A stretch of 42,498 nt of DNA from the NCBI GenBank assembly GCA_030727085.1, contig JANRCF010000035.1:3820-46317 (forward strand). The letters run 5' to 3'. Below are positions 3,779 through 32,763 of the stretch, one piece after another. How positions within the stretch are numbered: position 1 is the stretch's first letter; each line of letters opens with the position of its first letter. The stretch is from Alphaproteobacteria bacterium (lineage in GTDB: Bacteria; Pseudomonadota; Alphaproteobacteria; Paracaedibacterales; CAIOTO01). The notes beneath the pieces are model-generated. The model was not told the origin of the DNA. It searched no databases and saw nothing but the letters and a program-made list of their open reading frames with translations. The position numbers and the translations under genes are program-made.

Positions 3779-5776
3779 ATGTCCTCTCCAACGATCACTC
3801 ACAAGCCACTTCAAATAGTATCGCCATTCTCGCCTGCAGGTGATCAACCGGCGGCCATAGCTGCCCTAATTGATGGGTTGAATCAGAATGAGAAAAATCA
3901 AGTTCTACTTGGTGTAACTGGATCAGGCAAAACCTTTACAATAGCGAATGTGATTCAGGCGGTGCAACGGCCAGCGATTATTTTGGCGCCAAATAAAACG
4001 CTAGCGGCGCAGTTGTATGCCGAAATGCAAAGTTTTTTCCCACATAACGCGGTTGAATATTTTGTGTCGTATTATGATTATTATCAGCCAGAGGCATATG
4101 TGCCGCGCTCTGATACATTCATTGAAAAGACGGCTGCTATTAACGAACAGATCGATCGCATGCGTCATTCGGCTACACGGGCATTGCTTGAACGATCTGA
4201 TGTAATTGTGGTGGCGTCAGTGTCATGCATCTACGGTATTGGCGGCGTTGAAACGTATAGCGAAATGGTGCTTGAACTACGTAAAGGCATGTCCCTTGAT
4301 CGCACGAATTTACTGCGTAAATTGACCGAGCTTCAATACAAACGAAATGACATTGCTTTTGTGCGTGGTACGTTTCGGGTGCGTGGTGATATTCTTGATA
4401 TTTTTCCGTCACACTTTGATGAACGCGCTTGGAAGATTAGTTTTTTTGGCGATGAGCTTGAAGAGATTGTTGAAGTCGATGCGTTAACAGGTGAGCGTTT
4501 TGAAAAGCTAGATAAAGTAATTGTTTATCCCAATAGTCACTATGTGACGCCTGGACGTACAATTCAGCAAGCGATTAAGCAAATTCAAAGTGATCTTATA
4601 ATAAGGTTGGCAGAGTTTCGCCAAGACAATAAATTGCTTGAGGCGCAACGTCTTGAGCAGCGCACCATGTTTGATCTTGAAATGATGGCAGCAACTGGCT
4701 CATGTGCGGGTATTGAAAATTATTCGCGATATCTGACGGGTAGGGCGCCAGGCTCTGCTCCACCGACGTTGTTTGAATATTTACCAAATGATGCTTTGTT
4801 GATCATTGACGAGAGTCACGTTGCCGTACCCCAGCTGGGTGCGATGTATAAGGGCGATAAAGCACGTAAAACGACATTATCCGATTATGGGTTTCGCTTG
4901 CCTTCCTGCAAAGATAATCGTCCGTTGATGTTCGAGGAATGGGAAGCTATGCGCCCGCAAACAGTGTTTGTATCAGCAACGCCTGGTCCATTTGAGCTTG
5001 ATCAAACGCAAGGTGTATTTGTCGAGCAATTGATTCGCCCGACTGGCTTAGTTGATCCTATGTGCGAGATTCACCCTTGTGAGAATCAAGTGGATGATTT
5101 GATTCATGAATGCAAAGCGACGGTTGCAAAAGGGTATCGTATTTTGGTAACTACACTTACAAAACGGATGGCGGAATCACTGACGGATTACCTAACGGAG
5201 GCAGGCCTTAAAACATGTTATCTGCATTCGGATATTGATACGTTAGAGCGTATTCAGATTCTGCAGCAATTGCGTAAGGGTACGCATGATGTGTTGGTGG
5301 GTATTAACTTGCTTCGTGAAGGGTTAGACATTCCTGAATGCGGTTTGGTTGCAATTTTGGATGCCGATAAAGAAGGGTTTTTACGTTCTAAAACATCTTT
5401 GATACAAACGATTGGGCGTGCTGCACGAAATGTGGATGGTCGCGTAATTTTATATGCGGACAAGATGACAAAGTCAATGGAAGGCGCATTGGCTGAAACG
5501 GATCGTCGTCGTGAGAAACAAGTTGAGTATAACGAAGCACATGGTATTACGCCGCAATCTATCCGTAAAGATTTAGCGCAATCGATGGATATGGATGGCG
5601 TAGGGGCTGCTGCCGAAAAGGCTGAAAAGTTGCATATTGATATAACCAAGATTGCGAAGCAAATTGCGGATTTGGAAAAGAAAATGCGCAAAGCCGCTGG
5701 TGATTTAGATTTTGAAAAGGCGGCGCAGTTCAGAGATGAGTTGAAGCAACTGAGGGAGATTCAGCTGACGTTGTAA
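3779..5776 (+). CDS. uvrB: Excinuclease ABC subunit B
   Basis: 665 aa. It shows [11 protein letters not shown], the Walker A motif [10 protein letters not shown], helicase motifs ([23 protein letters not shown]) and a C-terminal UVR domain ([28 protein letters not shown]). Confidence 0.97.
5462..5776. repeat. Direct repeat copy 1 (3' terminal 315 bp of uvrB)
   Basis: Aligns without indels to 8372..8686. By hand count there are about 35 mismatches in 315 positions. Confidence 0.95.
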
Positions 5777-5882
5777 TTTAATTGCATTTTTCACCACAAC
5801 CATTCAGGCTATTCCTGTTATCATCGTGCTCTTTTTGTGGGGCTCTGCTCTTTGAAAGCACATAGCTATTCATTTATTTTAC

Positions 5883-5927
5883 GCACTAATTGCCATTGTG
5901 TCCGAGTCCGGAGATGGCAATTAGCGC
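5883..5927. other. Stem-loop between convergent uvrB and the 751-aa ORF (possible bidirectional terminator, no clear U-tract)
   Basis: gcactaattgccat (5883..5896) pairs with atggcaattagcgc (5914..5927) at 13/14 positions around a 17-nt loop. No flanking T-run is present on either strand, so a terminator function is uncertain. Confidence 0.35.
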
Positions 5928-5962
5928 GTCCAAAAGTGATAAAAAAAGTGAGTGATTACATT

Positions 5963-8218
5963 TTATTTTTCATTCACGGCAGCTGTGGTTGAACGTGCTG
6001 CGCCAGCCGCTTCTGCAGAACGCGCCCTGTGCTGAATCGTTTTTATATATATTTCATTAACATATGATTGTAAATATGCTCGGTAACCATCTACAACAAA
6101 CTCAACGACAACATTAATATCGTCTTCTAACGTGTCTTCATCCACATCATGTGATTGTGCAAAGTCAGAGATATATCTTCGTGTTAAGTTTTCAATGTCT
6201 GACATTGTTGATTGAGGTGTTGCACCACGTCGAACGAGCTCTCTTGCTAATCTAATAGCCTTTTTATGTGCCTCTTTTTGAGTAATGTCTTCACGAGGCT
6301 CTCTTGCTGCTGTACGCGCTTCATCTCTACAATCTTCTTTGTAAAAAATATTAAATGCATTTTTTATAAACATTCGAACTAATAGAGGGCCCTCTGCTTT
6401 TGCGAAAATGCTATCCAATTCTGGGTCCTCAAGGCCACGAAGGCCTGTTACGGCTCGATTAACGGCGCCTTCGGTGCAAATTTCTACGCCTTTAACACCT
6501 ATCCTATTGCTATAGAAAGTCCGCTGAGGTGCGGGCGTTTCTGATAAGAACCCATGGATCCACAACTGAATTTTTATTTCTCTTTCAGCGGCATCTGGAT
6601 AACGCTTGTGAATATATTTGAAAACTTCCCCAACTATTTTAACAGCTTTTTTATCTTCAAGCACTTCGAATAAAATTCTTATGTTATCAGCGGTGCTTCT
6701 GGTTGATATGTCAGCCATACTTCTTAGTTTATCAGCGATTAGATGTTTCAACACGTCAGCTTTTAAGGCAGGCTGAGGCACTCCCTGCCAAGCAGCATCT
6801 AAATCTATATGATTAATTATAGCTTGATTTAAAGAAAGAAATTCTGTTTCCTCCTCGTCTTCTTCATCCTCACCTTCATCTTCATCTACATACAGTGGCA
6901 TTGCAACTATGTATTTATGATAATCATCAATAGAACCCAACATTCGAGCAAGTAAGTTATTAGTTTGGTATGGTCGTTGCCTTCTTCTTTCTACACTGTG
7001 CATTACTTCATTTTTCACATTGTTTGGCACATTTGTGAATAGCAAACGTATTACTTGATTGTTATAATAGAGACGCATTTTTTCTAGGTTTGAATCTAAA
7101 TAACGTTCAGACGAATAAGGGTATTCTAAAATCTTTGCCAGATCTTCTGGTGGGTTTTCTAGTTGGTAACGAATGTATTCATGAAGCTGTTTGTCCTCAT
7201 TAAGAGGTCTTGTTGTTGATAGCATTTTAGATTTTTCAGGATGATGAACAAAATCAGCTAGATTTATGTGTAAACGACAGTAATGTTTAGCAACAAGTAC
7301 GGGGTCAAGTGCATAAACTTGCTTGTGATTTAATAAGAATCGAGATGCTGCAATGTTTTTGTACTCAGTTCGCATAAATTTATTAAATGCAAAGTTAATT
7401 GCACTTTTATTTGCAAATAATTTAGCGTGATTGTAATGCGTGATTTCTGTTGGAAGGTCACATAAAAGCGTTGCTATTGTCATATTATTAACGTTAAGTG
7501 CTTCTATAAGAGCTCCAGCAAGGGTTTGTTGAGTTAGCTCGAACGCACCTCTTAATCGCAACAGACGTGACACCGTTAACCGATGATTTAGTTTGACGCT
7601 ATGCATTAATTGTTCGCTAAGCCATATCGAAAAGTTATTTTCACTTTCTTTCTTTTCTTCAGGATTATTTAATGAAATTGCAGCTGTAAACTTATTGAAC
7701 TTAGGTTCCCACTCATTCTTTATATAATTCTCTTCGCTTGGCATGACAATATATTGTTTTCGCCTATGGGTCGTATTACCTCTAAGAAGAAGTTCAAATC
7801 TATCTCGTTGTTGTTTTAGGTCCTCTGGTTTCAATCTTTTTTGTAAGGCATAAATAATGTCTGGATTACTTCCTTCCTCTGCTAATTTTTCAAATTGTTC
7901 AACTACTAAAGAATAGCTTGGTTGCAGTCTTTTTGCTTTGTAAAATATATTGATAAGATCAATACTTTCAAGCGCGATTGCATAGCTAAAACTTTCATCA
8001 ACTGCTTCTTGGCTTGGCTGTATCAACTTAGTTGAGTCAAGCAATTCACTGAATTCAACTATATTTTGAAGATTTGCTGTCCATAACAATTTATTGTCAA
8101 GATCATTTTGCTCTATCCCAGGAGTATCTATTTTTTCCGCTGTAAAACCCTGGTGCACAAAAGACGATGCTATTGAAAAAGCAGTGACTATCAAAAGTTC
8201 TTTATATAAAATTTTCAT
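5963..8218 (-). CDS. Hypothetical secreted protein, 751 aa, with an internal poly-acidic tract; no recognisable domain
   Basis: Long uninterrupted ORF with an N-terminal signal-like segment MKILYKELLIVTAFSIASSFVHQGFTA. It contains the acidic run DEDEGEDEEDEEETE. It is AT-rich: a 60-nt spot count at 6061..6120 gives 32% GC, against 53% at uvrB 4801..4860. Confidence 0.6.
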   Translation of the reverse strand: MKILYKELLIVTAFSIASSFVHQGFTAEKIDTPGIEQNDLDNKLLWTANLQNIVEFSELLDSTKLIQPSQEAVDESFSYAIALESIDLINIFYKAKRLQPSYSLVVEQFEKLAEEGSNPDIIYALQKRLKPEDLKQQRDRFELLLRGNTTHRRKQYIVMPSEENYIKNEWEPKFNKFTAAISLNNPEEKKESENNFSIWLSEQLMHSVKLNHRLTVSRLLRLRGAFELTQQTLAGALIEALNVNNMTIATLLCDLPTEITHYNHAKLFANKSAINFAFNKFMRTEYKNIAASRFLLNHKQVYALDPVLVAKHYCRLHINLADFVHHPEKSKMLSTTRPLNEDKQLHEYIRYQLENPPEDLAKILEYPYSSERYLDSNLEKMRLYYNNQVIRLLFTNVPNNVKNEVMHSVERRRQRPYQTNNLLARMLGSIDDYHKYIVAMPLYVDEDEGEDEEDEEETEFLSLNQAIINHIDLDAAWQGVPQPALKADVLKHLIADKLRSMADISTRSTADNIRILFEVLEDKKAVKIVGEVFKYIHKRYPDAAEREIKIQLWIHGFLSETPAPQRTFYSNRIGVKGVEICTEGAVNRAVTGLRGLEDPELDSIFAKAEGPLLVRMFIKNAFNIFYKEDCRDEARTAAREPREDITQKEAHKKAIRLARELVRRGATPQSTMSDIENLTRRYISDFAQSHDVDEDTLEDDINVVVEFVVDGYRAYLQSYVNEIYIKTIQHRARSAEAAGAARSTTAAVNEK

Positions 8219-8371
8219 ATATTTTTCCTTAATTTTATAATATATAATTTATTAAATAATATAATTTATTTTAACTTTATAAGCCAGTGTTTCTATTTTG
8301 TCAATTTTATCTTGCACTTCATATCAATGTGCTCTGAATCTTTGTATTTAAAATTGAGTCGAAGATTTATA

Positions 8372-8686
8372 AAGATGACAAAGTCAATGGAGGGTGCGTT
8401 GGCTGAAACGGATCGCCGCCGTGAGAAACAGACTGAGTATAACGAAGCACATGGTATTACGCCGCAATCTATTCGTAAAGATTTAGCGCAATCGATGGAT
8501 ATGGATGGTGTGGGTGCTGCCGCTGAAAAGGTTGCTAAACTGCATATTGATATTACAAAAATTGCGAAGCAAATTGCAGATCTAGAAAAGAAAATGCGCA
8601 AAGCCGCGGGGGATTTGGATTTTGAAAAAGCCGCGCAGTTTAGAGATGAGTTGAAGCAGCTACGGGACATTCAGCTGACGTTGTGA
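8372..8686 (+). pseudogene. Duplicated 3' fragment of uvrB (C-terminal ~104 codons including the UVR domain); direct repeat copy 2
   Basis: The ORF 8312..8686 translates to ...[104 protein letters not shown]. From KMTKSM onward this differs from the UvrB C-terminus at 4 residues. The frame is intact through a TGA stop, and the upstream 20 codons are unrelated sequence. Confidence 0.85.
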
Positions 8687-8750
8687 ATATGAAGGGAGGC
8701 TAATGACACTGGTATTCATAAAGTCCTCGAGCAATCCTAAACCTGCGCAC

Positions 8751-10145
8751 TTAGCTGTATCTATCTTCTAATTCTGCTAATGAAAGCCTCTCGCTCACTG
8801 TAAAGCCCAGCTTTGTAAGTTTTTCAAATAAGTCATGTAGATGGCCCTTTCCTACATACGCAAAAGCAGATTTGAACACCCTTTGATTTAATGCCATTAT
8901 TCTTTGAATCCAAATATTGTTCCTTTCAAGAAGGTTTAGTGAATTATCTTTGATAAGTTCGTTGGAATAAAAATTACCATAGCCCATCGCGGATTCAAAA
9001 GTTACTTGTTTAGATTTTTGTTTTGCTTCGTCTGGATGTGTTTGTAATGATTCGATTCTATTTTTGAAAGCATAAAAACCATTTTCACAATTTTTATCGA
9101 TTGTTTCTATAAGTTCTTGTGCGCAAGATTCGTTGTAACGGTCAGCAGATTCTTCAAAAGCATAGAGCGTTTTTCCACATGATGATGTCATGTAATGTAA
9201 ATGATCGTCCATCCCGCCACATATAGGTCTTGTATAGGATGTATCACCCGTAAAACTTTCGTGCAGGAATTCTAATGCTATGGGATGTAGTTCTTTACCA
9301 TTGCGTGAAGGGACTATGGCAATCTTACCCTTTATTTTTAACTTCTTTGGATAAGATGCAGGCCAATCTTTGGTTGATCCAAAATCAGCTTCTACATTAT
9401 CATCAGTGACTATTATGCCTGCGTTTTCATACCAGAAATTGTTTGAATCAAAGATTTTAGACATTTGTGTATTAACATCTTTTTGGAGTTTTTCTTCGTT
9501 TATACTATCATCGGAATTTAGGTAGTATTGTTTAAGCGTTTCACTAAGATAGAATTCTCGAACATATTTCTGTATCTTTTGCATCCGTCTTTCTGTCATG
9601 TAAGGGGTAAGATTTTCATCTTCCTCAACATCATGATTTTCTTCTGAAATTTCAGATGTCAGCCCAGGTAAAAGCTTGCCACAAATTTCATTTATTACAA
9701 AATCTGACGCGTTAATAATATCATGCGCTATTCTGTAAGTTAGCATGCACCCCAAAGGAACAGTGTGGGTTGTACCTAGAATCAACATTTTTTGTCCATT
9801 TCGAAATGTGACCTCATAGATAGGAGGGCAAGGATGTTCAGGATATTTTGTTAAACGTAGATCAATACGTGGATCAATAGCCCGTTTGAGCATTTCTTGT
9901 GCGATTGGGATTAGTGATAAACGAGAAGTTGTTTCATGTAGCTCTAAGAAATGGACCACAGTCCGCATGGATGTTTCTTCAGTTTTTAATGGATGTATCA
10001 CGCCTGAATTTATTAATGGCATAGCAGATTCTGGTGAATTTTTATCATTATTGCAGGCAGCATAAGCACAATCTGTAATGATATGGCATAGCACTATGAT
10101 AGATATCTTGATGTATTTATTATAAGGATTGATTTTAATTATCAT
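8751..10145 (-). CDS. Secreted TraB/GumN (Tiki-like) family protein
   Basis: 464 aa with a hydrophobic N-terminus (ISIIVLCHIITDCAYA). It has MLILGTTHTVPL near the N-terminus and FAYVGKGHLHDLFEKLTKLGFTV near the C-terminus. These fit the GxxH ... VGxxHL...G..V pattern of the TraB/PrgY/GumN family. AT-rich (about 37% GC in a 60-nt spot count). Confidence 0.55.
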   Translation of the reverse strand: MIIKINPYNKYIKISIIVLCHIITDCAYAACNNDKNSPESAMPLINSGVIHPLKTEETSMRTVVHFLELHETTSRLSLIPIAQEMLKRAIDPRIDLRLTKYPEHPCPPIYEVTFRNGQKMLILGTTHTVPLGCMLTYRIAHDIINASDFVINEICGKLLPGLTSEISEENHDVEEDENLTPYMTERRMQKIQKYVREFYLSETLKQYYLNSDDSINEEKLQKDVNTQMSKIFDSNNFWYENAGIIVTDDNVEADFGSTKDWPASYPKKLKIKGKIAIVPSRNGKELHPIALEFLHESFTGDTSYTRPICGGMDDHLHYMTSSCGKTLYAFEESADRYNESCAQELIETIDKNCENGFYAFKNRIESLQTHPDEAKQKSKQVTFESAMGYGNFYSNELIKDNSLNLLERNNIWIQRIMALNQRVFKSAFAYVGKGHLHDLFEKLTKLGFTVSERLSLAELEDRYS

Positions 10146-10307
10146 TTTTATTTACGGATCTGGTCTTAAGTATAATGGCTAATTTATATATAGGCATTAT
10201 TATTTTATTTTCAAGTTTTTTTGTTTAAAAGACTGAAAAGCAACACAGGGATTCTAAATTGGCACGTAGACGCTAATACATGTCACATAGAGAAGGCTGT
10301 TTTAACG

Positions 10308-11399
10308 TTAAGTAAGATCTTTAGCTGATGGATTTTTTCGTGTTGTGCGTCCCATCATTTCCCTAACCAACACACCAATAACGGCTGCTGTTGGAATTGC
10401 CAGCAAAATCCCGGCAAAACCAAACCATGTGCCCCCTGCAAGCAACGAAAATAAAATAATAACTGGGTGTAGACCAATACGCCCTCCAACAAACCAAGGC
10501 GTTAGAATCTTTCCTTCAATCAATAATACGAAAAAGAATACAAATATAATGCTTATAACTTGTCCCCAGCTTACGAATGTTGTGAATGCAATGCTAAGTG
10601 ATGCGCACAAACCAATTATCATGCCTAAGTAGGGTATAAAGGTTAAAACACCTGTCATTATCCCTAAAAACCAAAATTTCTCAATCCCTGTGAGAAAAAG
10701 CCCAATCACGCAGAGCGCTCCCACTGCCATGCAGACAGTTGATTGGCCAATAAGATAGGCGGTTAATGTAGCATCGATACGTTTGAAGATGCGGCGGACT
10801 GTTGGTGCTATCGTGTCTGGTAAACGTTGATTGACATTGTGAATAAGTTTAGGCCAATCGCGTAGCATATAAAACATGATGACTGGCGTTAAAATAGCAA
10901 GTGTGAGGATATTTGCCAGCAGCATACCATTGCTGAGTAGGTTTATGATCAATTGAACTGACCATTTAACGATATCACCTAAATAGGCGGAAACTTGTCC
11001 GCGTATATTGGTGGCTGTAAGTGGATCTCCACTTATAGATGATAAGAGCGGCTGTATCTTGGCCATAACATGTTCAGCAAAATTAGGGATGCCCTTTACA
11101 AGTGAAACAAGTTCATTTTGCAAATAGGGTAATACCACTGAACTCACAAGAAACAGTACGATCAGGAATGTTAGAATTATTAACCCTGCGGCAATGCTGC
11201 GTGGTATGTAGCGTTCAAGTCGGTGCGCGATTTTATTAAAAAGATAAGCGCCAATAAAAGCAGTAAAAAATGGTTCACCAATGCCATCAAGGCTGTGAAT
11301 GATGCCGGCACTGATCACTACAGTGAGTATGATTACCAGGAACCACCTGAAAAAATTTGGATGCGCGATAAAAGTGGACAAAGATCTTTGCATAGACAA
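10308..11399 (-). CDS. AI-2E family transporter (PerM/YhhT-like permease)
   Basis: 363 aa, polytopic membrane protein. The C-terminal LLIEGKILTPWFVGGRIGLHPVIILFSLLAGGTWFGFAGILLAIPTAAVIGVL is the characteristic AI-2E/UPF0118 block. Confidence 0.85.
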   Translation of the reverse strand: MSMQRSLSTFIAHPNFFRWFLVIILTVVISAGIIHSLDGIGEPFFTAFIGAYLFNKIAHRLERYIPRSIAAGLIILTFLIVLFLVSSVVLPYLQNELVSLVKGIPNFAEHVMAKIQPLLSSISGDPLTATNIRGQVSAYLGDIVKWSVQLIINLLSNGMLLANILTLAILTPVIMFYMLRDWPKLIHNVNQRLPDTIAPTVRRIFKRIDATLTAYLIGQSTVCMAVGALCVIGLFLTGIEKFWFLGIMTGVLTFIPYLGMIIGLCASLSIAFTTFVSWGQVISIIFVFFFVLLIEGKILTPWFVGGRIGLHPVIILFSLLAGGTWFGFAGILLAIPTAAVIGVLVREMMGRTTRKNPSAKDLT

Positions 11400-11961
11400 A
11401 GCCTGATAAAAGTGTTGTTGCTAGTGTGCCATAGATTAACGCACTAGAAAAGAGGGGATAAAAATTAAGAGGTGGGAGGAGGGGGATTAAGAGTAACCAG
11501 CCCACGAGTGACATTTGTAGGCCTGTATTATATTTGCTGATTCTTATGGGGTTAAGTGTGTATGGAATCTTTTTTTTCTTGATCCAAAGGCCCCCAAGCA
11601 CAATAAGTAAATCTCTAAACACAACAATACTTATAAGCCAAAAGGGTAGTTTTCCTATCACAAAAAGACCTACACAAACGCATGTAACAAAGACTTTGTC
11701 GGCAATTGGGTCAAAGGTTCGGCCAAACTCAGATTCAATTCCTAAAAAACGTGCACTGGCGCCATCAAGCCAGTCGGTAAGGCTTGCAAAACAGACAAGC
11801 CAGAATGCCAAGGTAGCATGATTGGCAAGTAAGGCCCAAAGCACAAAAGGGCCCGCCAAAAGACGAAGCCCTGTTAATGCTTGTGGAATCCAAAAGTAAG
11901 GACGGAAGTTAGCCAACAATTTCTGTCCTGCTAAAGAAGTATGAAATTTCAGATGCTGCAT
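11287..11961 (-). CDS. pgsA: CDP-diacylglycerol--glycerol-3-phosphate 3-phosphatidyltransferase
   Basis: Carries the CDP-alcohol phosphatidyltransferase motif [27 protein letters not shown] (D-G-x2-A-R-x8-G-x3-D-x3-D). The listed ORF reaches 12117, but that part overlaps ndk out of frame. I place the start at ATG 11961 (MQHLKFH...); TTG codons at 11919 and 11916 are alternatives. Confidence 0.85.
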
Positions 11962-12331
11962 TTTCTTCGGAATCTGATCCATGCACAGAGTTTGCTTCAA
12001 TAGATTCAGCAAATTCTTTGCGAATTGTGCCTTCAGCTGCGTTTGCTGGGTTTGTTGCTCCCATAATATCACGATACTTAACAACAGCATCGCTTCCTTC
12101 GAGTACTTGTACAACAACAGGGCCTGTTGTCATGAATTCACACAAATCACTGAAAAATGAGCGTTCTGCGTGAACGGCATAAAAGCCTTCTGCTTGTGCG
12201 CGTGTTAACCAAAGGCGCTTTTGCGCGATAATACGAAGACCAGCATCTTCGATTTTTGCATTGATCTTTCCAGTAAGGTTGCGACGTGTAACATCGGGCT
12301 TTAGGATGGAAAGTGTTTGTTGAACAGACAT
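11909..12331 (-). CDS. ndk: Nucleoside diphosphate kinase
   Basis: 140 aa. [32 protein letters not shown] and NSVHGSDS (active-site His) are canonical Ndk blocks. Confidence 0.97.
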
Positions 12332-12649
12332 GTTGGTACCTTAAAATTTATCAAATTGTTATCCTTATTTAATAGGATAAAAAAGTTGAAAAAGCAAGGG
12401 TAAGTCGCTGGAGGTTTTGTTTCTATAGAAAATGCGCTGATTTTGTTTGTTTTTTTGCTACACAAAACATGAAAATATATAAGCGCTGTGTAAGTGGTAA
12501 ATGGCAGTTCTTGTTTTTGTATGAATGTCATTAAGTTGACATCCGTAATACTTATACTGTAGAAAGTAAATATGCCTTTGATCAGCCTGAGGCTTGCGTA
12601 ATACTTTTCATCCGTACTTTAACCGTTTTTTAAGAGTTAGCGATTTAAT

Positions 12650-13237
12650 ATGATCTTAGTGCAAAAACGAATGTATCAGCCTCTGATGAAAAATCGATTG
12701 AAGATTAAGAGAAATCTTAAGTATATTTTTCCATTTTGTGGTTTTTCAGTGCTTTTATTCGTTTTTTTGGGCGTTGGTATACGTACTCATATTATCTCAG
12801 ATGCTTTTTCGTCATTCAATCTTAATTATGCATCAAATCTAAAATATGGGGGGCATAATCAAAAAGGTCAGCCATTTCATATCCAGTCTGAACGTGGCAC
12901 CGAGCTTTCCGACAAAGAAGTTGTGTTTGATCAATTGAAAGCTGCTGTTGATCTTAAAAAAGGAGAGACGCTTAATATCGAGGCGAACAGAGGTGCGTTT
13001 GATAAGGCATCAAAAACAATGGAACTTAATGGAAATGTGCGACTTAAGCACGCTAATGGCTTGACATTACACACGACAGAGGCGACCATTAATATGGCGA
13101 ATGGTTCAGCAGAAAATAACTCTCCTATCGAAGGCACAAGTGATCGTGCTCATATAAAAGCTAAAGGTTTTCGTATGGAAGGGGAAAATCAAATCGTATT
13201 TTTAGGTAATCCAGAGCTAACAATTCGTGCACATTAA
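12650..13237 (+). CDS. lptC: LPS export system protein LptC (by context and topology)
   Basis: 195 aa with a single N-terminal TM segment (IFPFCGFSVLLFVFLGVGI) followed by a beta-rich periplasmic part. It sits immediately upstream of the lptA-lptB-rpoN cluster. Sequence-level recognition is weak. Confidence 0.6.
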   Translation: MILVQKRMYQPLMKNRLKIKRNLKYIFPFCGFSVLLFVFLGVGIRTHIISDAFSSFNLNYASNLKYGGHNQKGQPFHIQSERGTELSDKEVVFDQLKAAVDLKKGETLNIEANRGAFDKASKTMELNGNVRLKHANGLTLHTTEATINMANGSAENNSPIEGTSDRAHIKAKGFRMEGENQIVFLGNPELTIRAH

Positions 13238-13275
13238 ATAAGTTCGTTGTGTAATTAATTTGAAGAAAAGGTTTA

Positions 13276-15176: not shown

Positions 15177-16562
15177 ATGATGAGACATGAACAAAATATA
15201 TCGGTTCGCCAGACCACCGAACTATCGATGACGCCGCGCTTGCAGCAGGCGATTGCCCTGTTGCAACTATCAACGGCCGAATTGAATGCATATGTGGATC
15301 AGCAACTGCTGGAAAACCCGCTTTTATTGCAAGAGCAGGATAATTCTTTTGATGCGCCTGATAATAGTAATGATTCAGACAATGATGGGTCTGATACTTT
15401 TGATGAACCTGGTTCGGCTTCCTCTGATGATGCAAATCAAACGCCATTATGGAAATCACACAAGACACTGGGCGAATATTTAATTGAGCAAATTCATATG
15501 GCATTGCCAGATGATGTAGATCAGCTGATTGCTTTTGAATTGATGCTGCATCTTGATGAAGATGGATTGCTTGATGAAGATTGGGTCGAGGTGGCCGAGG
15601 TTTTAGGTGTGACAGATGGCCAGGTCGAATACGTTCTTAGCATTTTACAAAACTTTGATCCGCCTGGAATTTTTGCGCGTTCGGTTTCTGAATCGCTTAA
15701 GATCCAATTGATCGAGAAAAATAGTATTGATATAAGCCAGCTTGATGTGATGCTTAACGCGTTTCAACAGTTAGATCGTCATGATATTACTGAAGTCGCT
15801 AAGACAGCGCAGATCAATCTCAACGCGTTTAAAGAATTCTTGGGGCAGTTGCGGCATTTGCAATTTAGACCTGCTCATGCTTTTGTGCAAGATGATACTG
15901 TTGCCAGTATTATACATGATGTTCGTGTCGTTGCGCAGTCGGATGGCACGTTAGCAGTTGCGCTTAATTTTAGTAATCAGCCGCGTGTGTTGGTCAATAG
16001 CCAATATTATAATGATATCAAGGGCAAAGTGAGTCGCGCCGAGGAGCTAACTTACCTTAAAGAAAAATTTGCGGCGGCTAATTGGTTGATTCAGTCGCTT
16101 CAAAAACGTGCGGTGACATTGCTGCAGGCATCGTCTGAGATTGTGCATTGGCAGCAAGATTTTTTTGCATCATCTAATAATGCCTTAAAACCAATGACAC
16201 TTAAAGAAATTGCGGATGCGGCCGGTGTTCATGAGAGTACGGTCAGCCGTATTACTACCGCTAAGTATATCCAGACCCCCCGTGGGATGTTTGAACTGAA
16301 AAGCTTATTTGTGAGCTCCGTTGGTGTAAAGCACAATAGTGCCAATACATCATCAAATGAAATTCAAAGTGCATTGAAGCAAATCATTCAGGAAGAACCT
16401 AAAAATAGTCCTTTATCAGATGAAGATTTGGTTGGAATTTTACAGTCAAAAGGGCTTGCCGTGGCCCGACGCACAATATCGAAATATCGCACGATTTTGG
16501 GTATTGCATCATCGAGCGATCGCAAACGGCACTATGCGATGAAGCAATCGCTGGGGAGGTAG
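15177..16562 (+). CDS. rpoN: RNA polymerase sigma-54 factor
   Basis: 461 aa. N-terminal region I LSMTPRLQQAIALLQLS, an acidic region II, the HTH block GVHESTVSRI and the RpoN box ARRTISKYR. Confidence 0.95.
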   Translation: MMRHEQNISVRQTTELSMTPRLQQAIALLQLSTAELNAYVDQQLLENPLLLQEQDNSFDAPDNSNDSDNDGSDTFDEPGSASSDDANQTPLWKSHKTLGEYLIEQIHMALPDDVDQLIAFELMLHLDEDGLLDEDWVEVAEVLGVTDGQVEYVLSILQNFDPPGIFARSVSESLKIQLIEKNSIDISQLDVMLNAFQQLDRHDITEVAKTAQINLNAFKEFLGQLRHLQFRPAHAFVQDDTVASIIHDVRVVAQSDGTLAVALNFSNQPRVLVNSQYYNDIKGKVSRAEELTYLKEKFAAANWLIQSLQKRAVTLLQASSEIVHWQQDFFASSNNALKPMTLKEIADAAGVHESTVSRITTAKYIQTPRGMFELKSLFVSSVGVKHNSANTSSNEIQSALKQIIQEEPKNSPLSDEDLVGILQSKGLAVARRTISKYRTILGIASSSDRKRHYAMKQSLGR

Positions 16563-17267: not shown

Positions 17268-20200
17268 TTGACTGAAAAAACCTCTTCATCTTCTTCCCCC
17301 CCCTACGACGGTTTCATACATCTTCGAGTGCACTCAGCCTATTCGCTGACCGAAGGGGCTATTTTGATGAAGAGTCTGCCAAAGCTGTGTCAAAAACAAA
17401 AAATGCCAGCCGTTGCATTGACTGATACGAATAACATGTTTGGTGCGTTGGAATTTTCGATGGCTGCGGCGGATGCGGGGATTCAGCCCATTATTGGCTG
17501 CCAGCTGACGGTTGATTTAAGCGCACATTTTTCAAAAATCACGACGACTCCAGCGTCGATGGTTTTCCTTGCTCAAAACGAAGCTGGTTACATGAACCTA
17601 ATGAAACTTGTAAGCCTTGCATATTTTAAGGAACAAGGATTGATTGGGCCGCACATTACAATGGCCGAACTTGCTAAGCATACGGATGGCGTGATTTGTT
17701 TGACGGGGGCGCATGAGGGGTCTCTTGCGCAATTGTTGCAGCTTACATCTGAAGACTCGCGTAAGGAATATGCTGATTCCTTCACAAAAACACTGCTCGA
17801 TCTGTTCCCGAATCGTTTGTATATGGAATTGCAACGCCACGGCATACCGCTTCAACAGCAGTTAGAGCCTGACTTTCTTGATCTTGCGATTCGTTTTGAC
17901 ATACCACTTGTAGCAACGAATAATGTGTTTTTTGGCACACCCGATATGTATGACGCGCATGATGCGCTGCTGTGTATTGCGGCCGGTACCTATGTGGAAC
18001 AAGATCAACGTCGCACCGAAACGCCGCGTCATTATTTTAGGTCGGCGGCCGAGATGAAAGAGGCTTTTGCAGATCTACCTGAGGCGACCCAGAATACAGT
18101 TGTGATCGCGCGTCGTTGTTATTACAGGCCGCTGCCGCGCAAACCTATTTTGCCGAGTTTTCCGACGGTTTCAGGGCGTAGTGAAACGGAAGAAATGTGG
18201 GATCAGTCCCATGCAGGTCTTGAAGTGCGTTTGACAGAGGAAGTTTTTAATCGCTTTCTAACTGAGCAACATGAAGAACTACGTGCGCAATACATAGAAC
18301 GTCTGCGATACGAGCTTGGTATCATTGAACGGATGGGGTTCCCTGGGTACTTTTTGATCGTATCTGACTTCATCAAATGGGCAAAAGATCGAGGAATTCC
18401 TGTGGGGCCAGGCCGTGGTTCAGGGGCGGGCTCGCTTGTCGCATGGTCACTGCTTATTACCGATATGGATCCCATCCGATTTAATCTGCTGTTCGAGCGT
18501 TTCTTGAACCCAGAACGTGTTTCAATGCCTGACTTTGACGTGGACTTTTGCCAAGATCGCCGTGATGAAGTGATCCGTTATGTGTGTGAAAAATACGGTA
18601 TGGATCGCGTGGCGCATATTATCACGTTTGGTAAATTGCAGGCGCGTATCGTGATTCGTGACGTGGGGCGCGTGCTGCAGATGCCGTATGGGCAGATTGA
18701 TCGTATTTGTAAGATGATTCCGAATAATCCGGCGAATCCTATGACACTGGCGCAATCGATCGAACATGAACCGCTTTTAAAACAGCAACGTGATGACGAC
18801 GAAATGGTTGCACGGTTAATGGATATGGGGATGAAGCTTGAGGGCTTATATCGTCACGCATCGACGCATGCGGCGGGTGTTGTGATTGGTGATCGTCCGC
18901 TTGATGAACTGGTGCCGCTATATCGCGATGAAAAGTCTGACTTGGCTGTGACGCAGTTCAATATGAAATATGTTGAAACAGCCGGGCTGGTGAAGTTCGA
19001 CTTTTTGGGGCTTAAGACGCTGACCGTCGTTGAATCATGCTGCCAATTGGTGAGAAACCTAACGGGCAAAGATTTCCGCATTCATACCATTCCATTGGAT
19101 GATCCGGCTACGTTTGCGCTGCTGTGCCGTGTTGAGGCTGTCGGCATATTCCAGCTTGAAAGTGCTGGTATGCGTGATGTGTTGCGGAAACTTCAGCCTG
19201 ACCGATTTGAAGATTTAATCGCGCTTGTGGCGCTCTATCGTCCAGGGCCCATGGATGATATTCCGCGCTATCTTGCATGTAAGCATGGCGAGGAAGCCGT
19301 TACATACTTGCACCCGCTGTTGAAAGATATTCTAGAGCCAACCTATGGCGTTATGGTTTACCAAGAACAAGTTATGCAGATCGCACAGGTCTTGGGTGGC
19401 TATACACTTGGTGCCGCTGACTTGCTACGTCGTGCAATGGGTAAGAAAATTAAGTCCGAAATGGATGCGCAGCGTGCCTTATTTACTGAAGGCGCCATTA
19501 AAAATGGTATTAAACCGAATATTGCGTCACAGATTTTCGATCAAATGGCAAAGTTCGCAGGGTACGGTTTTAACAAGTCGCACTCGGCGCCATATGCGTT
19601 GTTGGCTTACCAAACGGCGTATTTAAAAGCCAATTATCCGCTGCAATTTTTTGCAGCAACCATGACATTAGATATGCACAATACCGATAAACTGAATGTA
19701 TATCGTCAAGACCTTGATCGCCAAGAAATCCCCTTGTTGCCCCCAAGTGTGAATGAATCTGATGTGACTTTCACGGTTGAAGGTCATGGTATCAGGTATG
19801 CGCTGGCTGGGCTTAAAGGGGTAGGGGCGCAGGCGATGGAATCACTTGTTGCAGAGCGTACTAAAAATGGTGCATTCAAAAATTTACGTGATTTTGCAAC
19901 GCGCATTGACCCTGGCGTTATCAACAAACGGCAGCTTGAAAATATGGTAAACGCGGGCGCTTTTGATTGTTTGCATAATAATCGCCGGCAATTAAGTGAA
20001 GGCTTAGAGGCGTTACTTGGGATTTCTCAGCAAATACGATCTGAAAAATCAAGTAAACAACGCATGTTGTTTGGCAGCACAGCCACTGAAACCGAAAAAG
20101 ATGTGCCGCTACCAAATGTGATGGAATGGACACCGCTTGATCGTTTGCAAAAGGAATTCGATGCGATTGGGTTTTACTTAAGCGCACATCCTCTTGATAT

Positions 20201-20735
20201 GTATAAAGATGTGCTTGATCAATTAGGTGTTGTGAAGTCATGTGATTTGCTTGAGCGTGCAACGAGCAGCAATCAAACTGTCGCACTTGCAGGGATTATC
20301 TTAACGAAGCAAGAACGTACATCCAAAAAAGGCGATCGATTTGCCTTTGTGTCATTGACCGATTTGACAGGCGTGTTTGAGGTTGCATTTTTTTCAGAAG
20401 CCTTTGCATCGGTGCGTGATAAGTTGATTCCAGGGCAAGCAGTATATGTAACTGGGAATTTACGTGCGGACGGTGATGAAAGTTTTAGGCTAACGGGGAA
20501 CGGGCTGGAACCGTTAGATAACAAGGCTAAAGTTGATTCGTTGGAGCTATCTATTGACCCTAAACGGGCGAATGTCGCGCACCTTGGCGAGATAGTGCAG
20601 GGCCTTAGAAAGGGTCGAACAGTGCTTCATTTTTTGGTGCCGGTTGCAGGGATTGGTACGATTAAGGTGACACTTTCCGGTGGGTATGACGTAACGCCAA
20701 ATCAAAAAGCGACGCTGCTGCAAGTGTGTGGGTGA
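17268..20735 (+). CDS. dnaE: DNA polymerase III subunit alpha
   Basis: 1155 aa with an apparent TTG start. PHP domain FIHLRVHSAYSLTEG, polymerase core (GPGRGSGAGSLVAWSLLITDMDP, PDFDVDF, FQLES, ALYRPGP, FNKSHSAPYAL) and a C-terminal OB region. Confidence 0.97.
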   Translation: MTEKTSSSSSPPYDGFIHLRVHSAYSLTEGAILMKSLPKLCQKQKMPAVALTDTNNMFGALEFSMAAADAGIQPIIGCQLTVDLSAHFSKITTTPASMVFLAQNEAGYMNLMKLVSLAYFKEQGLIGPHITMAELAKHTDGVICLTGAHEGSLAQLLQLTSEDSRKEYADSFTKTLLDLFPNRLYMELQRHGIPLQQQLEPDFLDLAIRFDIPLVATNNVFFGTPDMYDAHDALLCIAAGTYVEQDQRRTETPRHYFRSAAEMKEAFADLPEATQNTVVIARRCYYRPLPRKPILPSFPTVSGRSETEEMWDQSHAGLEVRLTEEVFNRFLTEQHEELRAQYIERLRYELGIIERMGFPGYFLIVSDFIKWAKDRGIPVGPGRGSGAGSLVAWSLLITDMDPIRFNLLFERFLNPERVSMPDFDVDFCQDRRDEVIRYVCEKYGMDRVAHIITFGKLQARIVIRDVGRVLQMPYGQIDRICKMIPNNPANPMTLAQSIEHEPLLKQQRDDDEMVARLMDMGMKLEGLYRHASTHAAGVVIGDRPLDELVPLYRDEKSDLAVTQFNMKYVETAGLVKFDFLGLKTLTVVESCCQLVRNLTGKDFRIHTIPLDDPATFALLCRVEAVGIFQLESAGMRDVLRKLQPDRFEDLIALVALYRPGPMDDIPRYLACKHGEEAVTYLHPLLKDILEPTYGVMVYQEQVMQIAQVLGGYTLGAADLLRRAMGKKIKSEMDAQRALFTEGAIKNGIKPNIASQIFDQMAKFAGYGFNKSHSAPYALLAYQTAYLKANYPLQFFAATMTLDMHNTDKLNVYRQDLDRQEIPLLPPSVNESDVTFTVEGHGIRYALAGLKGVGAQAMESLVAERTKNGAFKNLRDFATRIDPGVINKRQLENMVNAGAFDCLHNNRRQLSEGLEALLGISQQIRSEKSSKQRMLFGSTATETEKDVPLPNVMEWTPLDRLQKEFDAIGFYLSAHPLDMYKDVLDQLGVVKSCDLLERATSSNQTVALAGIILTKQERTSKKGDRFAFVSLTDLTGVFEVAFFSEAFASVRDKLIPGQAVYVTGNLRADGDESFRLTGNGLEPLDNKAKVDSLELSIDPKRANVAHLGEIVQGLRKGRTVLHFLVPVAGIGTIKVTLSGGYDVTPNQKATLLQVCG
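20695..20735. repeat. 41-bp direct repeat copy 1 (last 13 codons plus stop of dnaE)
   Basis: The sequence cgccaaatcaaaaagcgacgctgctgcaagtgtgtgggtga recurs at 21746..21786 with a single mismatch. Confidence 0.95.
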
Positions 20736-20744
20736 GAAATATTT

Positions 20745-21740
20745 ATGATGAACGAAAGTGAAATCCTTCTTTATACGACAAAAGAAGGTAATGTAAAAGT
20801 TGATGTGATTTATGGCGATCAGACGATTTGGCTGAGTCAAAAGAAAATGGCATTGCTTTTTGGGGTGGATATCAGAACCATTAGTGAGCATTTTCAGAAC
20901 ATATTTAATAGTGGTGAATTGCTTAAAGATTCAGTTATCCGGAATTTCCGGAATACTGCAACAGATGGCAAAAACTACACCACTCAATTTTACAATTTGG
21001 ATGCCATTATTGCAGTTGGTTATCGTGTTAATTCAAAGCAAGCAACGGAATTTAGAATTTGGGCAACCAATATCTTAAAAGAATTTATCATCAAAGGTTT
21101 TGTTCTTGATTCAGACAGACTTAAAAATGGTGCTAAATTTGGCCACGATTATTTTGATGAATTGCTTGAAAAGATCAGAGAGATCAGGGCCTCTGAACGA
21201 CGATTCTATCAGAAAATAACGGATATTTATGCTGAATGTTCTGCAGATTATGATCCGGCTAGTAGTGTCACAAAGGAATTCTACGCTAAAGTTCAAAATA
21301 AATTGCATTTCGCGATTCATGGGCATACTGCTGCCGAGCTAATTCATGAGCGTGTTAATCATATAAAGCCATTTATGGGGCTAACAACATGGAAGAATGC
21401 GCCAAATGAGAAGATACTAAAATCAGATGTAAGCGTTGCAAAAAATTATTTGTCAGGGGAAGAGATCAAAGAATTAAACCATATTGTGACAATGTATCTT
21501 GATTATGCAGAGCTTCAGGCATCAAAGCAGAAATTAATGCGCATGGATGATTGGGTTGTGAAATTAGATGCATTTCTGTCATTTAACGATTACAGCATTT
21601 TAGCTCATGCTGGCAAGATTAGTGCAGAGATTGCAAAGGCCCTTGCCGAAGAAGAATTTGATAAGTACAGAGTTATTCAAGATCAGTTGTATCAATCTGA
21701 TTTTGATAAACTTATTGGTGAAGTTAAGCAGAAGAGTTAG
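20745..21740 (+). CDS. rhuM: RhuM family virulence/DNA-binding protein
   Basis: 331 aa. The N-terminal block ILLYTTKEGNVKVDVIYGDQTIWLSQKKMALLFGVDIRTISEHFQNIF...YNLDAIIAVGYRVNSKQATEFRIWATNILKEFIIKGFVLDSDRLKNG is the hallmark of the RhuM family. AT-rich (33% GC at 21001..21060, against 57% in dnaE at 18421..18480). Confidence 0.8.
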   Translation: MMNESEILLYTTKEGNVKVDVIYGDQTIWLSQKKMALLFGVDIRTISEHFQNIFNSGELLKDSVIRNFRNTATDGKNYTTQFYNLDAIIAVGYRVNSKQATEFRIWATNILKEFIIKGFVLDSDRLKNGAKFGHDYFDELLEKIREIRASERRFYQKITDIYAECSADYDPASSVTKEFYAKVQNKLHFAIHGHTAAELIHERVNHIKPFMGLTTWKNAPNEKILKSDVSVAKNYLSGEEIKELNHIVTMYLDYAELQASKQKLMRMDDWVVKLDAFLSFNDYSILAHAGKISAEIAKALAEEEFDKYRVIQDQLYQSDFDKLIGEVKQKS

Positions 21741-21745
21741 AGTGG

Positions 21746-21786
21746 CGCCGAATCAAAAAGCGACGCTGCTGCAAGTGTGTGGGTGA
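21746..21786. repeat. 41-bp direct repeat copy 2 (orphan copy of the dnaE 3' end)
   Basis: cgccgaatcaaaaagcgacgctgctgcaagtgtgtgggtga matches 20695..20735 at 40/41 positions. It begins 5 nt after the rhuM stop. Confidence 0.95.
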
Positions 21787-31302: not shown

Positions 31303-32763
31303 ATGAAATTTAAATTAAAATTACTCGGCACGTGTTTAGGCCTTGCTTTATCGTGCACAAGTTCATACGCCGTGTCTGGTGTAAGTGACGCATTAAATGC
31401 ACTAGGAACCGGCGTTAGTGCATTAACTACTAAAGTAATTGCACCTGCAAATACGAGTGATATTGCTGATTTAAGCACCACTGTTGTAGCAAACCTTACT
31501 ACTACACAGTTTGCCGCGTTATCTACAGTTCAAATACCTGCATTAACAACAGCACAACTCGCGGCCGTCACAACAGGGCAAATTGGTGCGATGACATCGG
31601 CGCAAGCCAAAGTTTTAACGTCAACACAAATTGCAGCCCTTCCTTCTATTAGCCGCATGGGTTCAGATGTCATCACAGCGATTACAACAGCTGCACTGCC
31701 AAGCTTGTCAACATCATTGCTGACTACGCTAACAACAGCACAAATAGCCGCGCTAACAACAGCACAAATAGCCTCGTTAACAACGGCACAAGTTGCAGCT
31801 ATAACGACAGAACAAATGCCTGTATTGTCAACAGCAGAGCTTTCTGCTATGACAACAGCACAATTTGCTGCATTAACATCAACCCAACTCAATACATTAT
31901 CCAACGTAAAAGTCGCAAGTCTTTCGTCAGCAAAAGTAGCTGCTATGCCAACGTCAGTGGTTACTGGTTTGTCAACAGCCTTAGTGCCTTATATAGCTGA
32001 TACGGCGATACCATATTTAACAACAGCCCAAATAGCTGCAATACAATCTGCTCAATTAGCTGTTTTAGACCTGACACAAGTCAATGCGCTTACATCAAGT
32101 CAAATGAGTGCTATAGGCAGTGCTGTGTTTTCAGCGTTAACGTCACGTCAAATCCCAGCCTTGCATGCATCAGCTTTTGCTGGCATACCAACTTCCGTGA
32201 TGAGCGCCATAACACTCGGCCAAATTACAGCGCTTACTACAACTCAATTAAATGCCTTTTCGTCCTCTCAATTAAATTCCATACCAACAGCAACTTTTAC
32301 GACATTAACAACAGGTGCTTCAGGGCAAATCGCAAGCTTGCCAACATCACTTATTGCAAATATTACTACTGCATATATGACAGCCTTAGCAACAAATCAG
32401 CTAACATCTTTAACAACAGCTCAGGTAAACGCCATGACCTCTGCACAGGTTAGTGCATTGGCAGCAACAATGAGCACTCTGCTATCAAATCAATTTGCTG
32501 GATTGTCTTCGTCAAATCTTGCTGGTTTATCCACAGCAGCATTAACAGCTCTAGGCTCCGACCAACTGCGGTCAATACCTGCAGCCGCTATACCAGGCCT
32601 CCCATTGGGTTTAACTTCAGATTTATTGTCAGCAATGATTTCTAGCACGACAACCAGCTTTACACCCGCACAAGCACGTGCCTTTACGTCATCTCAGTTT
32701 TCTTCAACTGCGCTGGCTGGCAACACCAACATGACTTCATGGAGGGCTCTCGCTATTGCATAG
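31303..32763 (+). CDS. Secreted tandem-octapeptide-repeat protein (about 45 LTTAQIAA-like units)
   Basis: 486 aa with a strong RBS (aggaggtttaaATG) and the signal peptide MKFKLKLLGTCLGLALSCTSSYA. Residues 65 to about 432 parse into 8-residue units with consensus [LIM]-[TS]-[TS]-x-Q-[ILVF]-x-[AS]. Confidence 0.7.
   Translation: MKFKLKLLGTCLGLALSCTSSYAVSGVSDALNALGTGVSALTTKVIAPANTSDIADLSTTVVANLTTTQFAALSTVQIPALTTAQLAAVTTGQIGAMTSAQAKVLTSTQIAALPSISRMGSDVITAITTAALPSLSTSLLTTLTTAQIAALTTAQIASLTTAQVAAITTEQMPVLSTAELSAMTTAQFAALTSTQLNTLSNVKVASLSSAKVAAMPTSVVTGLSTALVPYIADTAIPYLTTAQIAAIQSAQLAVLDLTQVNALTSSQMSAIGSAVFSALTSRQIPALHASAFAGIPTSVMSAITLGQITALTTTQLNAFSSSQLNSIPTATFTTLTTGASGQIASLPTSLIANITTAYMTALATNQLTSLTTAQVNAMTSAQVSALAATMSTLLSNQFAGLSSSNLAGLSTAALTALGSDQLRSIPAAAIPGLPLGLTSDLLSAMISSTTTSFTPAQARAFTSSQFSSTALAGNTNMTSWRALAIA
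31495..32598 (+). repeat. In-frame 24-nt periodic coding repeat array
   Basis: Adjacent units are nearly identical at DNA level, for example ctaacaacagcacaaatagccgcg (31729..31752), ctaacaacagcacaaatagcctcg (31753..31776) and ttaacaacggcacaagttgcagct (31777..31800). Confidence 0.85.

Follow-up and report, generated by a model that had tools for sequence, protein, structure and literature searches.

How does a single gene come to lie between two versions of the same housekeeping gene end when no machinery for moving it is found nearby? The question is raised by the uvrB locus in a 42,498-nucleotide (nt) stretch of DNA from a metagenome assembly (contig JANRCF010000035.1 of GCA_030727085.1), hereafter called the window. 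Here, an intact uvrB gene is followed by an orphan gene on the opposite strand (the cargo, encoding a protein of 751 amino acids, aa), beyond which the last part of uvrB occurs a second time in the same orientation. The functional gene end is referred to as copy 1 and the stranded one as copy 2 (Table 1). The closest named relatives of the encoded UvrB belong to Candidatus Paracaedibacteraceae (88% aa identity) and Candidatus Finniella (72%), and, judged by UvrB similarity, the host is an uncultured, probably intracellular alphaproteobacterium of the protist-symbiont kind. The arrangement is probably the outcome of recombination between diverged relatives in which uvrB provided homology on one side only, leaving copy 2 stranded. 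We put the probability of this reading at roughly 0.6.

The two copies form a gapless direct repeat with a period of 2910 bp and a nucleotide identity of 88.6% (BLAST, E = 5e-114). The left edge of the homology is abrupt at 5462/8372, where the initial 20 nt are identical, and the right edge is the stop codon. Between the copies, 36 nucleotides differ, which fall on the first, second, and third codon positions in the proportion 4/4/28. Only 4 of the 104 residues are replaced from copy 1 to copy 2 (V582T, A615V, E616A, and E660D), and the stop codon is TAA in one and TGA in the other. Following Nei and Gojobori, 29.5 synonymous and 5.5 non-synonymous differences were counted, corresponding to a synonymous divergence (dS) of 0.70, a non-synonymous divergence (dN) of 0.023, and a dN/dS ratio of 0.032; the deficit of replacements against the neutral expectation is significant (binomial test, p = 7e-15). 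Between undoubted functional uvrB ends, the ratio ranges from 0.017 to 0.105 (0.042 for the relatives L001 and L002 described below), a range that includes the value of the two copies. The original prediction, made from the sequence alone, had described a 315-bp duplication of this period without indels, had counted about 35 differences with four replacements and the same change of stop codon, and had concluded from the nearly exclusive synonymous changes that both copies diverged as functional uvrB ends. Repeat search and BLAST confirmed the duplication, the recount altered the number of differences by one, and a computed dN/dS of 0.03, not near 1, upholds the conclusion. An assembly artefact, which had been named as a possible source of the repeat, does not explain it: an independent ENA assembly (L081) shows the same arrangement with 3 mismatches in 18.2 kb, and in a 95.8%-identical strain from another sequencing run (L082) one contig spans both cargo junctions.

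The origin of the two tails was examined with the help of related strains, two of which were recovered from Logan data: L085 (SRR21700158) and L108 (SRR24908252). The UvrB of L108 is 3 aa off that of the window, and the two uvrB genes are 95.7% identical at the nucleotide level. The haplotype segments compared were window 8372-8686, L085 1632-1870, and L108 6155-6393. Against L108, the body of the window uvrB shows a dS of 0.19 and copy 1 a dS of 0.27 (dN/dS 0.038), whereas copy 2 reaches 0.70; copy 1 thus goes with the rest of the window uvrB, and copy 2 represents an outlier lineage. In L085, the functional uvrB end is of the copy 2 type. Of 119 sites, 4 separate it from copy 2 (all synonymous) and 13 from copy 1, which means that the copy 2 haplotype serves as a working uvrB end elsewhere in the population. 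Judged from these comparisons, the two copies derive from different lineages. The earlier proposal that one tail came from a diverged relative is supported by the dS of 0.70 between the copies and by the functional copy-2-type end of L085. Its more specific form, in which copy 1 arrived with the cargo as a surrogate gene end, is not supported, as copy 1 matches the gene body against L108 (0.27 vs 0.19) and copy 2 is the outlier (0.70). Selection acting in place on copy 2 is not needed to account for the data.

The site before the insertion can be seen in L001, the closest species-level genome, whose uvrB is ~83% identical to that of the window at the nucleotide level (UvrB, 94% aa). In L001, the homologue of window 8687-13248 stands directly after uvrB, and copy 2 with its downstream DNA is collinear with the end of the L001 uvrB and the DNA downstream of it. 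An empty site, which the original prediction had proposed to look for in relatives, is thus found in L001. The first gene of this right flank, a 464-aa gene of the TraB/PrgY/GumN family, lies directly after uvrB in L001 and is missing in L002, where the AI-2E family transporter gene follows uvrB directly; the position just after uvrB therefore varies at more than one level. No third uvrB remnant was found between the 464-aa gene and the AI-2E transporter gene of the window or of L001 by tblastn and short blastn. Relatives with 96% aa identity have quite different uvrB neighbours (ddl-ftsQ, for example), which places uvrB at a synteny breakpoint.

Further cases were traced through close UvrB relatives and through the cluster to which the small protein predicted on copy 2 belongs, and the architecture recurs with other cargos in L085, L108, and GCA_041443025.1, in line with the recurrence that had been suspected. 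In L085, the uvrB end is followed by three small reverse-strand orphan open reading frames (ORFs), a 239-nt uvrB remnant that starts at repeat position 77, and a reverse-strand Rpn/PDDEXK_2 gene (Pfam PF12784). In L108, an Rpn-family gene (TIGR01784, 99.7 bits) stands directly after uvrB, and beyond it, at 7408-7494, lies an older remnant comprising the last 87 nt of uvrB (28 codons and the stop), which is in frame, ~77% identical at the nucleotide level, and carries unique replacements. L085 1632-2422 and L108 6155-6945 are 98.1% identical over 791 nt. Since the uvrB of L108 is joined directly to the Rpn gene that trails the L085 remnant, L108 represents the empty site for the L085 insertion, and on this alignment the two strains together show cargo-plus-remnant units stacked in two tiers. 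GCA_041443025.1 has a 5749-bp contig that carries uvrB, a 462-aa reverse-strand gene, a 65-aa UVR fragment, and the AI-2E transporter gene; for this contig and for the 15045-bp contig described below, the evidence consists of gene tables, not DNA. The homology of the 65-aa fragment to UvrB starts from about GVGAAAEK, at approximately codon 607, and covers ~59 codons (~180 nt), and the 462-aa gene may be homologous to the 464-aa gene of the window.

At least four independent uvrB remnants with different cargo are thus known, with lengths of 315 (window), 239 (L085), ~180 (GCA_041443025.1), and 87 nt (L108). All stem from the last 105 codons of uvrB, and their right boundary is always the stop codon, after which five unrelated sequences follow. 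The cargo ends of the window, of L085, and of the dnaE insert described below have nothing in common beyond chance matches of 7-10 nt, and the gene tables of L085 and L108 list no recombinase. A search of metagenomes with the 104-aa tail gave one close relative (L086), which has no remnant. Free-standing UvrB C-terminal proteins were also considered as remnants, most of which are genes cut at contig ends. In two unrelated long-read assemblies with long contigs (L083 and L084), the candidates were frameshift-split uvrB genes, not duplications; both assemblies have DpnI-like genes after uvrB, and L084 also has a reverse transcriptase gene.

A site-by-site comparison of the window copies with L108 and L085 gave a mosaic with no single switch point. 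In L85b, a run of 10 copy-1-type sites was observed (P = 0.004), and the run test was significant for L85b only. L085 and L108 mismatch at 15 positions, of which 12 are located in the uvrB part (239 nt) and 3 in the adjoining Rpn region (552 nt), and clade UvrB proteins combine the V/T, AE/VA, and E/D variants in several ways. Short tracts at the uvrB 3′ end evidently undergo frequent homologous exchange or gene conversion, which would explain the lack of a single switch point, and the mosaic points to conversion of short tracts, either between functional copies and remnants or from strain to strain. The distances to the relatives L001 and L002 do not tell the foreign copy apart, the identities of the two copies to L001 being 80.6% and 83.2%.

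For an event of this kind, we infer a one-sided homologous mechanism together with a route of DNA delivery. The donor would be a relative with ~11% nucleotide divergence in the segment and a different gene just after uvrB. In a circular form of the process, a fragment that starts within the uvrB 3′ end and includes the neighbouring gene would circularize and integrate by one homologous crossover within uvrB; exactly the carried piece of uvrB would be duplicated, and the sharp junction would mark the point of circle closure. In a linear form (homology-facilitated illegitimate recombination), the incoming DNA would pair in uvrB, and its far end would join illegitimately inside the resident uvrB tail. 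Both forms would leave uvrB whole, with the accessory gene right after its stop codon and a second tail beyond the cargo, and repeated rounds would stack further cargo-plus-remnant units. The tails would differ almost only synonymously because both evolved in working uvrB genes of different lineages. Short, diverged repeats would probably persist preferentially, as long identical repeats would recombine and thereby delete the cargo.

An experimental parallel is available from E. coli, where homology to the lacZ end was provided on one side only: 56 of 60 integrants had arisen from circular molecules by a single crossover, and those that were sequenced carried duplications of 109-950 bp of the gene end (Amarir-Bouhram 2011, PMC3240628). 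In both cases, a gene-end duplication flanks the inserted DNA with the same topology and in the same size range, the remnants described here measuring 87-315 nt. Unlike the laboratory plasmid system with its identical homology, the present case concerns a natural population, ~11% divergence, and an uncultured host.

Displaced gene ends are also known from rhs genes, for which a C-terminal displacement model with circular intermediates that move the old tip to a silent downstream position has been put forward (Jackson 2009, PMC2935791), and from effector-immunity arrays of type VI secretion systems (T6SS), which have been attributed to homology-facilitated illegitimate recombination (Kirchberger 2017, PMC5361080). 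As at uvrB, dissociated 3′ fragments with conserved sequence lie behind an intact gene, newcomers enter beside the intact gene and push older ends downstream into arrays, and no dedicated recombinase takes part. In the rhs and T6SS systems (and in cdiA too), however, the incoming 3′ end is non-homologous and brings a new toxin tip with its immunity gene, so that diversity is selected. Here, the target is a housekeeping repair gene whose competing 3′ ends are alleles with almost only synonymous differences, the cargo gene stands apart on the opposite strand, and the second uvrB tail appears to be a by-product.

A third class of likeness is found in restriction-modification genes that are inserted with a long target duplication of 30 to ~420 bp and without mobility genes (Furuta, Abe, and Kobayashi 2010, PMC2853133, which cites Nobusato 2000). 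Such inserts are smaller than 20 kb and have a GC content below that of the genome, and the direct repeats at their ends are single-copy in the empty genome and often overlap a gene 3′ end. The uvrB locus is alike in that a 2.6-kb insert without mobility genes is bordered by a 315-bp repeat that is single-copy in L001. The differences concern the cargo, which consists of restriction (R) and modification (M) genes there but of the 751-aa orphan (at uvrB) and a RhuM-family gene (at dnaE) here, and the repeats, which are near-identical there (e.g., 417/423) but 88.6% identical with a dS of 0.70 at uvrB. This identity, combined with synonymous-only divergence, indicates copies from different lineages. 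The dnaE pair (40/41) resembles the published cases.

Several points weigh against one-sided recombination between relatives. No donor arrangement was found, and the orphan occurs only with copy 2 beside it. The imported side may be either copy 1 or copy 2. The downstream cassettes all start precisely at the stop codon and the remnants all lie within the last 105 uvrB codons, which random joints would not obviously produce. Selection against truncated UvrB or against long repeats could explain both features, but the stop-precise starts leave room for something more specific than general recombination. The search for a recombinase covered the 42-kb window, and a trans-acting enzyme elsewhere in the genome is compatible with its negative outcome; likewise, the window is silent on competence, gene transfer agents, and other uptake routes. 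Finally, the three extra cases came from searches for remnant-like proteins, by which the frequency of the arrangement is biased upward.

The room left by the stop-precise boundaries could be filled by cassettes that move on their own account. If the two flanking repeats recombined, a circle one period long could be set free and dock in any relative. It is doubtful, though conceivable, that such self-perpetuating, homology-addressed cassettes exist, in which the 2910-bp circle re-docks by one crossover and builds integron-like stacks behind housekeeping genes without an integrase, the Rpn nuclease possibly assisting. A dedicated integrase-free cassette system, whose units would leave as circles via the flanking repeats and re-dock in relatives with the possible help of an Rpn/PDDEXK_2 nuclease, we consider unlikely. 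It would account for the recurrence at dnaE and, with four or more cargos, at uvrB (perhaps also at a MOSC gene, see below), for the stacked array in L108 and L085, and for a boundary that is always precise to the stop codon, and the array does contain a gene of the recombination-promoting Rpn nuclease family (TIGR01784 and PF12784). Rpn proteins are reported to raise RecA-independent recombination in E. coli (PMC5350276). A role of the nuclease in the array is nevertheless speculation: the Rpn gene of L108 looks like cargo, Rpn proteins are also described as defence toxins (PMC10400941), and the window and L082 carry the architecture, although no Rpn-like gene is present in the window. In addition, no circle or excision product was seen, and general recombination suffices for all observations. 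The dedicated, undescribed device for docking single genes that had been suggested at the outset is not supported, as four different remnant starts, the lack of common cargo ends, and the lack of a recombinase fit homology-anchored recombination, for which there are precedents.

The layout of intact gene, cargo, and displaced 3′ end is also that of an integrase-mediated insertion into a gene end, and the locus might thus be the relic of a site-specific integrative element that supplied a surrogate uvrB 3′ end and whose tyrosine or serine recombinase, encoded elsewhere in the genome, acts in trans. Phage 21 and e14, which insert at icd, bring an alternative 3′ end that keeps the target intact; the original end is displaced but persists as a pseudo-fragment, and most differences between the two ends are synonymous. 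Both carry an integrase gene and rely on a single fixed core site. An element of this type, or one derived from an integrative and conjugative element that lacks its integrase, would leave a direct repeat of the gene 3′ end at both ends of the insert, as is seen at uvrB; the identical first 20 nt of the copies could be the core site, and the 41-nt repeat at dnaE has the typical length of an attachment site. The uvrB insert differs in having a single-gene cargo, no integrase in the window, variable boundaries, and no conserved end sequences. Across related strains, there are four different uvrB positions from which remnants start, no sequence is common to the cargo ends of L085 and the window, neither the window nor the short related contigs contain a recombinase, and the repeats differ in length (315 and 239 nt) and identity (~89%) from a short identical core. 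Variable boundaries, unshared ends, the lack of a recombinase, and long diverged repeats make a fixed-site recombinase a poor fit, and we regard this origin as quite unlikely.

Even less probable is a target duplication that arose in place, with both copies diverging in the lineage of the window and copy 2 being kept by selection, for example, as a small UVR-domain protein. In its favour, the identity between the copies (88.6%) is higher than that of either copy to L001, long target duplications have been documented for genes that lack mobility functions (PMC2853133), and copy 2 is an open frame with an ATG at 8375, annotated by NCBI as a protein of 103 aa (MDP4725120.1). No convincing ribosome-binding site was seen upstream of this ATG when the sequence was read directly, and promoter-like matches stay at background level. 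The oldest remnant, that of L108, is short and carries unique replacements. Above all, a paralogue born in the window lineage should not have a near-identical functional counterpart in L085 (4/119 differences, compared with 13/119 to copy 1), and the dS of 0.70 between the copies exceeds that of the uvrB body against L108 (0.19) more than threefold, so that duplication in place is a poor fit. A chimera assembled from two co-occurring strains, which might be considered because the sequences are all metagenome-derived and the databases contain several uvrB haplotypes side by side, can be dismissed as most improbable given the independent assembly L081, the contig of the 95.8%-identical strain that crosses both cargo junctions, and the real reads that are needed to join AT-rich cargo DNA to uvrB between positions 8371 and 8372.

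A second insert of the same form is present in the window at dnaE. The repeated dnaE end contains a single mismatch, a synonymous CCA/CCG difference, and only the RhuM-family gene lies between the copies; the remnant ends at the stop codon, after which native DNA follows. The RhuM-family gene also matches PDC-S05, a PADLOC candidate single-gene defence family (E = 5.6e-151). From its sequence, the dnaE/rhuM locus fits the form of the uvrB locus, and the 41 nt are compatible both with import and with duplication in place. Of the original claim concerning dnaE, the 40/41 repeat around a single gene and the shared form hold true, while a shared dedicated docking device is unsupported.

Similar arrangements may exist at other loci. 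On the 15045-bp contig mentioned above (JGI 3300059473 / GCA_041443025.1), the gene table lists a MOSC gene of 266 aa, a 476-aa orphan, and a MOSC fragment of 68 aa, which suggests that the MOSC locus repeats the uvrB pattern. On this and two further leads, mostly gene tables and not DNA, the pattern looks general in the clade. A 442-aa ORF with a match to peptidyl-tRNA hydrolase adjoins pth on an ERZ1426842 contig, and L002 has a 51-bp direct repeat (16226-16276 and 17726-17775, 86%) of a terminator-like hairpin (CCCCCCTCTTGAAGCAATTCAACGAGGG) that flanks an orphan 358-aa reverse-strand gene without a Pfam match, located between an ABC-F-type ATPase gene and ftsH. In L001, a GNAT acetyltransferase gene (17980-18576) lies between lptB and rpoN that is missing from the window, and no flanking repeat was detected around it.

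The cargo at uvrB is accompanied by a spacer on one side and an AT-rich stretch on the other. The spacer contains a hairpin at 5881-5929 (-29.9 kcal/mol, z = -6.6), which from its sequence is probably a terminator. The contents of the insert had been described correctly, namely, a spacer with a stem-loop, a reverse-strand orphan gene of 751 aa, and an AT-rich upstream region, but the GC contrast that had been put at 53% for uvrB against 32% for the cargo was overstated. The measured values are 44.6% for uvrB and 36.6% for the orphan, with 40.6% for the whole window. The reported absence of integrase and transposase stands, as no such domain was found among the window ORFs of at least 100 aa that were scanned.

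The 751-aa protein has no match in Pfam, NCBIfam, or PADLOC and none to a toxin or immunity protein, and it forms a 90%-identity cluster of its own among 5.8 billion proteins. An exhaustive HMMER search retrieved 74 remote homologues (best E ~1e-34, ~30% identity), which align over a region of ~250 residues in its C-terminal part (residues ~460-725). The 74 representatives are mostly 500-750 aa long, many being shorter, and their alignment contains an invariant R, T-G-L-R-G, D, and E within a motif like VTGLRG..DPELD. No Pfam family fits any member tested. An AlphaFold (AF2) model of residues 440-751 is all-helical and confident (predicted local distance difference test, pLDDT, 83.7; predicted template modeling score, pTM, 0.74), yet no fold match was found for it in the PDB. 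Elsewhere in the window, a gene at 31303-32763 (+) encodes a 486-aa protein of ALTTAQ repeats (Pfam PF20080, 10 stretches), whose DNA shows repeats of 24-nt period at 31544-31913.

Table 1. Coordinates of the features at the uvrB and dnaE loci of the window (+, forward strand; -, reverse strand;., no strand)
Feature	Position	Strand	Evidence or remark
uvrB, intact, 665 aa	3779..5776	+	Pfam UvrB_inter, Helicase_C, UvrB, UVR
Copy 1, functional uvrB 3′ end, codons 562-665 and TAA	5462..5776	+	Repeat search, BLAST, codon count
Cargo-specific spacer between the convergent uvrB and orphan genes, 186 bp	5777..5962	.	No homology to the sequence downstream of copy 2
Cargo gene, 751-aa protein with N-terminal hydrophobic signal-like segment and conserved C-terminal helical domain	5963..8218	-	
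AT-rich region upstream of the cargo gene, 153 bp, 19% GC	8219..8371	.	Right edge is the non-homologous junction with copy 2
Copy 2, stranded uvrB 3′ end, 104 codons and TGA, frame intact, different haplotype	8372..8686	+	Repeat search, BLAST, codon count
464-aa gene, TraB/PrgY/GumN family, variable uvrB neighbour	8751..10145	-	
AI-2E family transporter gene, first conserved right-hand neighbour	10308..11399	-	Pfam
Left copy of the dnaE 3′ end, last 41 nt (13 codons and TGA)	20695..20735	+	
Cargo at dnaE, RhuM-family gene, starting 9 nt past the dnaE stop	20745..21740	+	Pfam Virulence_RhuM, E = 1.9e-112
Stranded dnaE 3′-end copy	21746..21786	+	40/41 nt identical

The locus is thus probably best understood as a known process, homology-anchored one-sided recombination, which in this clade of uncultured symbionts affects housekeeping genes and leaves their old ends behind as a stacked, legible fossil record. 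Each stranded tail would preserve the state of a uvrB allele that once worked in another lineage, and the order, length, and divergence of the remnants would give a relative history of gene arrivals at the locus. Accessory genes may in this way enter beside housekeeping genes in Paracaedibacteraceae-like genomes without mobile-element machinery; those observed here encode an orphan protein whose conserved domain is novel, a defence candidate of the RhuM type, and a nuclease of the Rpn family. For annotation, it is relevant that uvrB remnants are called as small UVR-domain proteins, as happened with copy 2 (MDP4725120.1). Were the pattern to extend genome-wide, short pieces of core genes kept in frame could act as markers for recently acquired genes and gauge the recombination between diverged symbiont lineages in metagenomes. 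Should the units move as cassettes, stacks of accessory, effector, or defence genes would be expected in protist-associated Paracaedibacteraceae-like bacteria.

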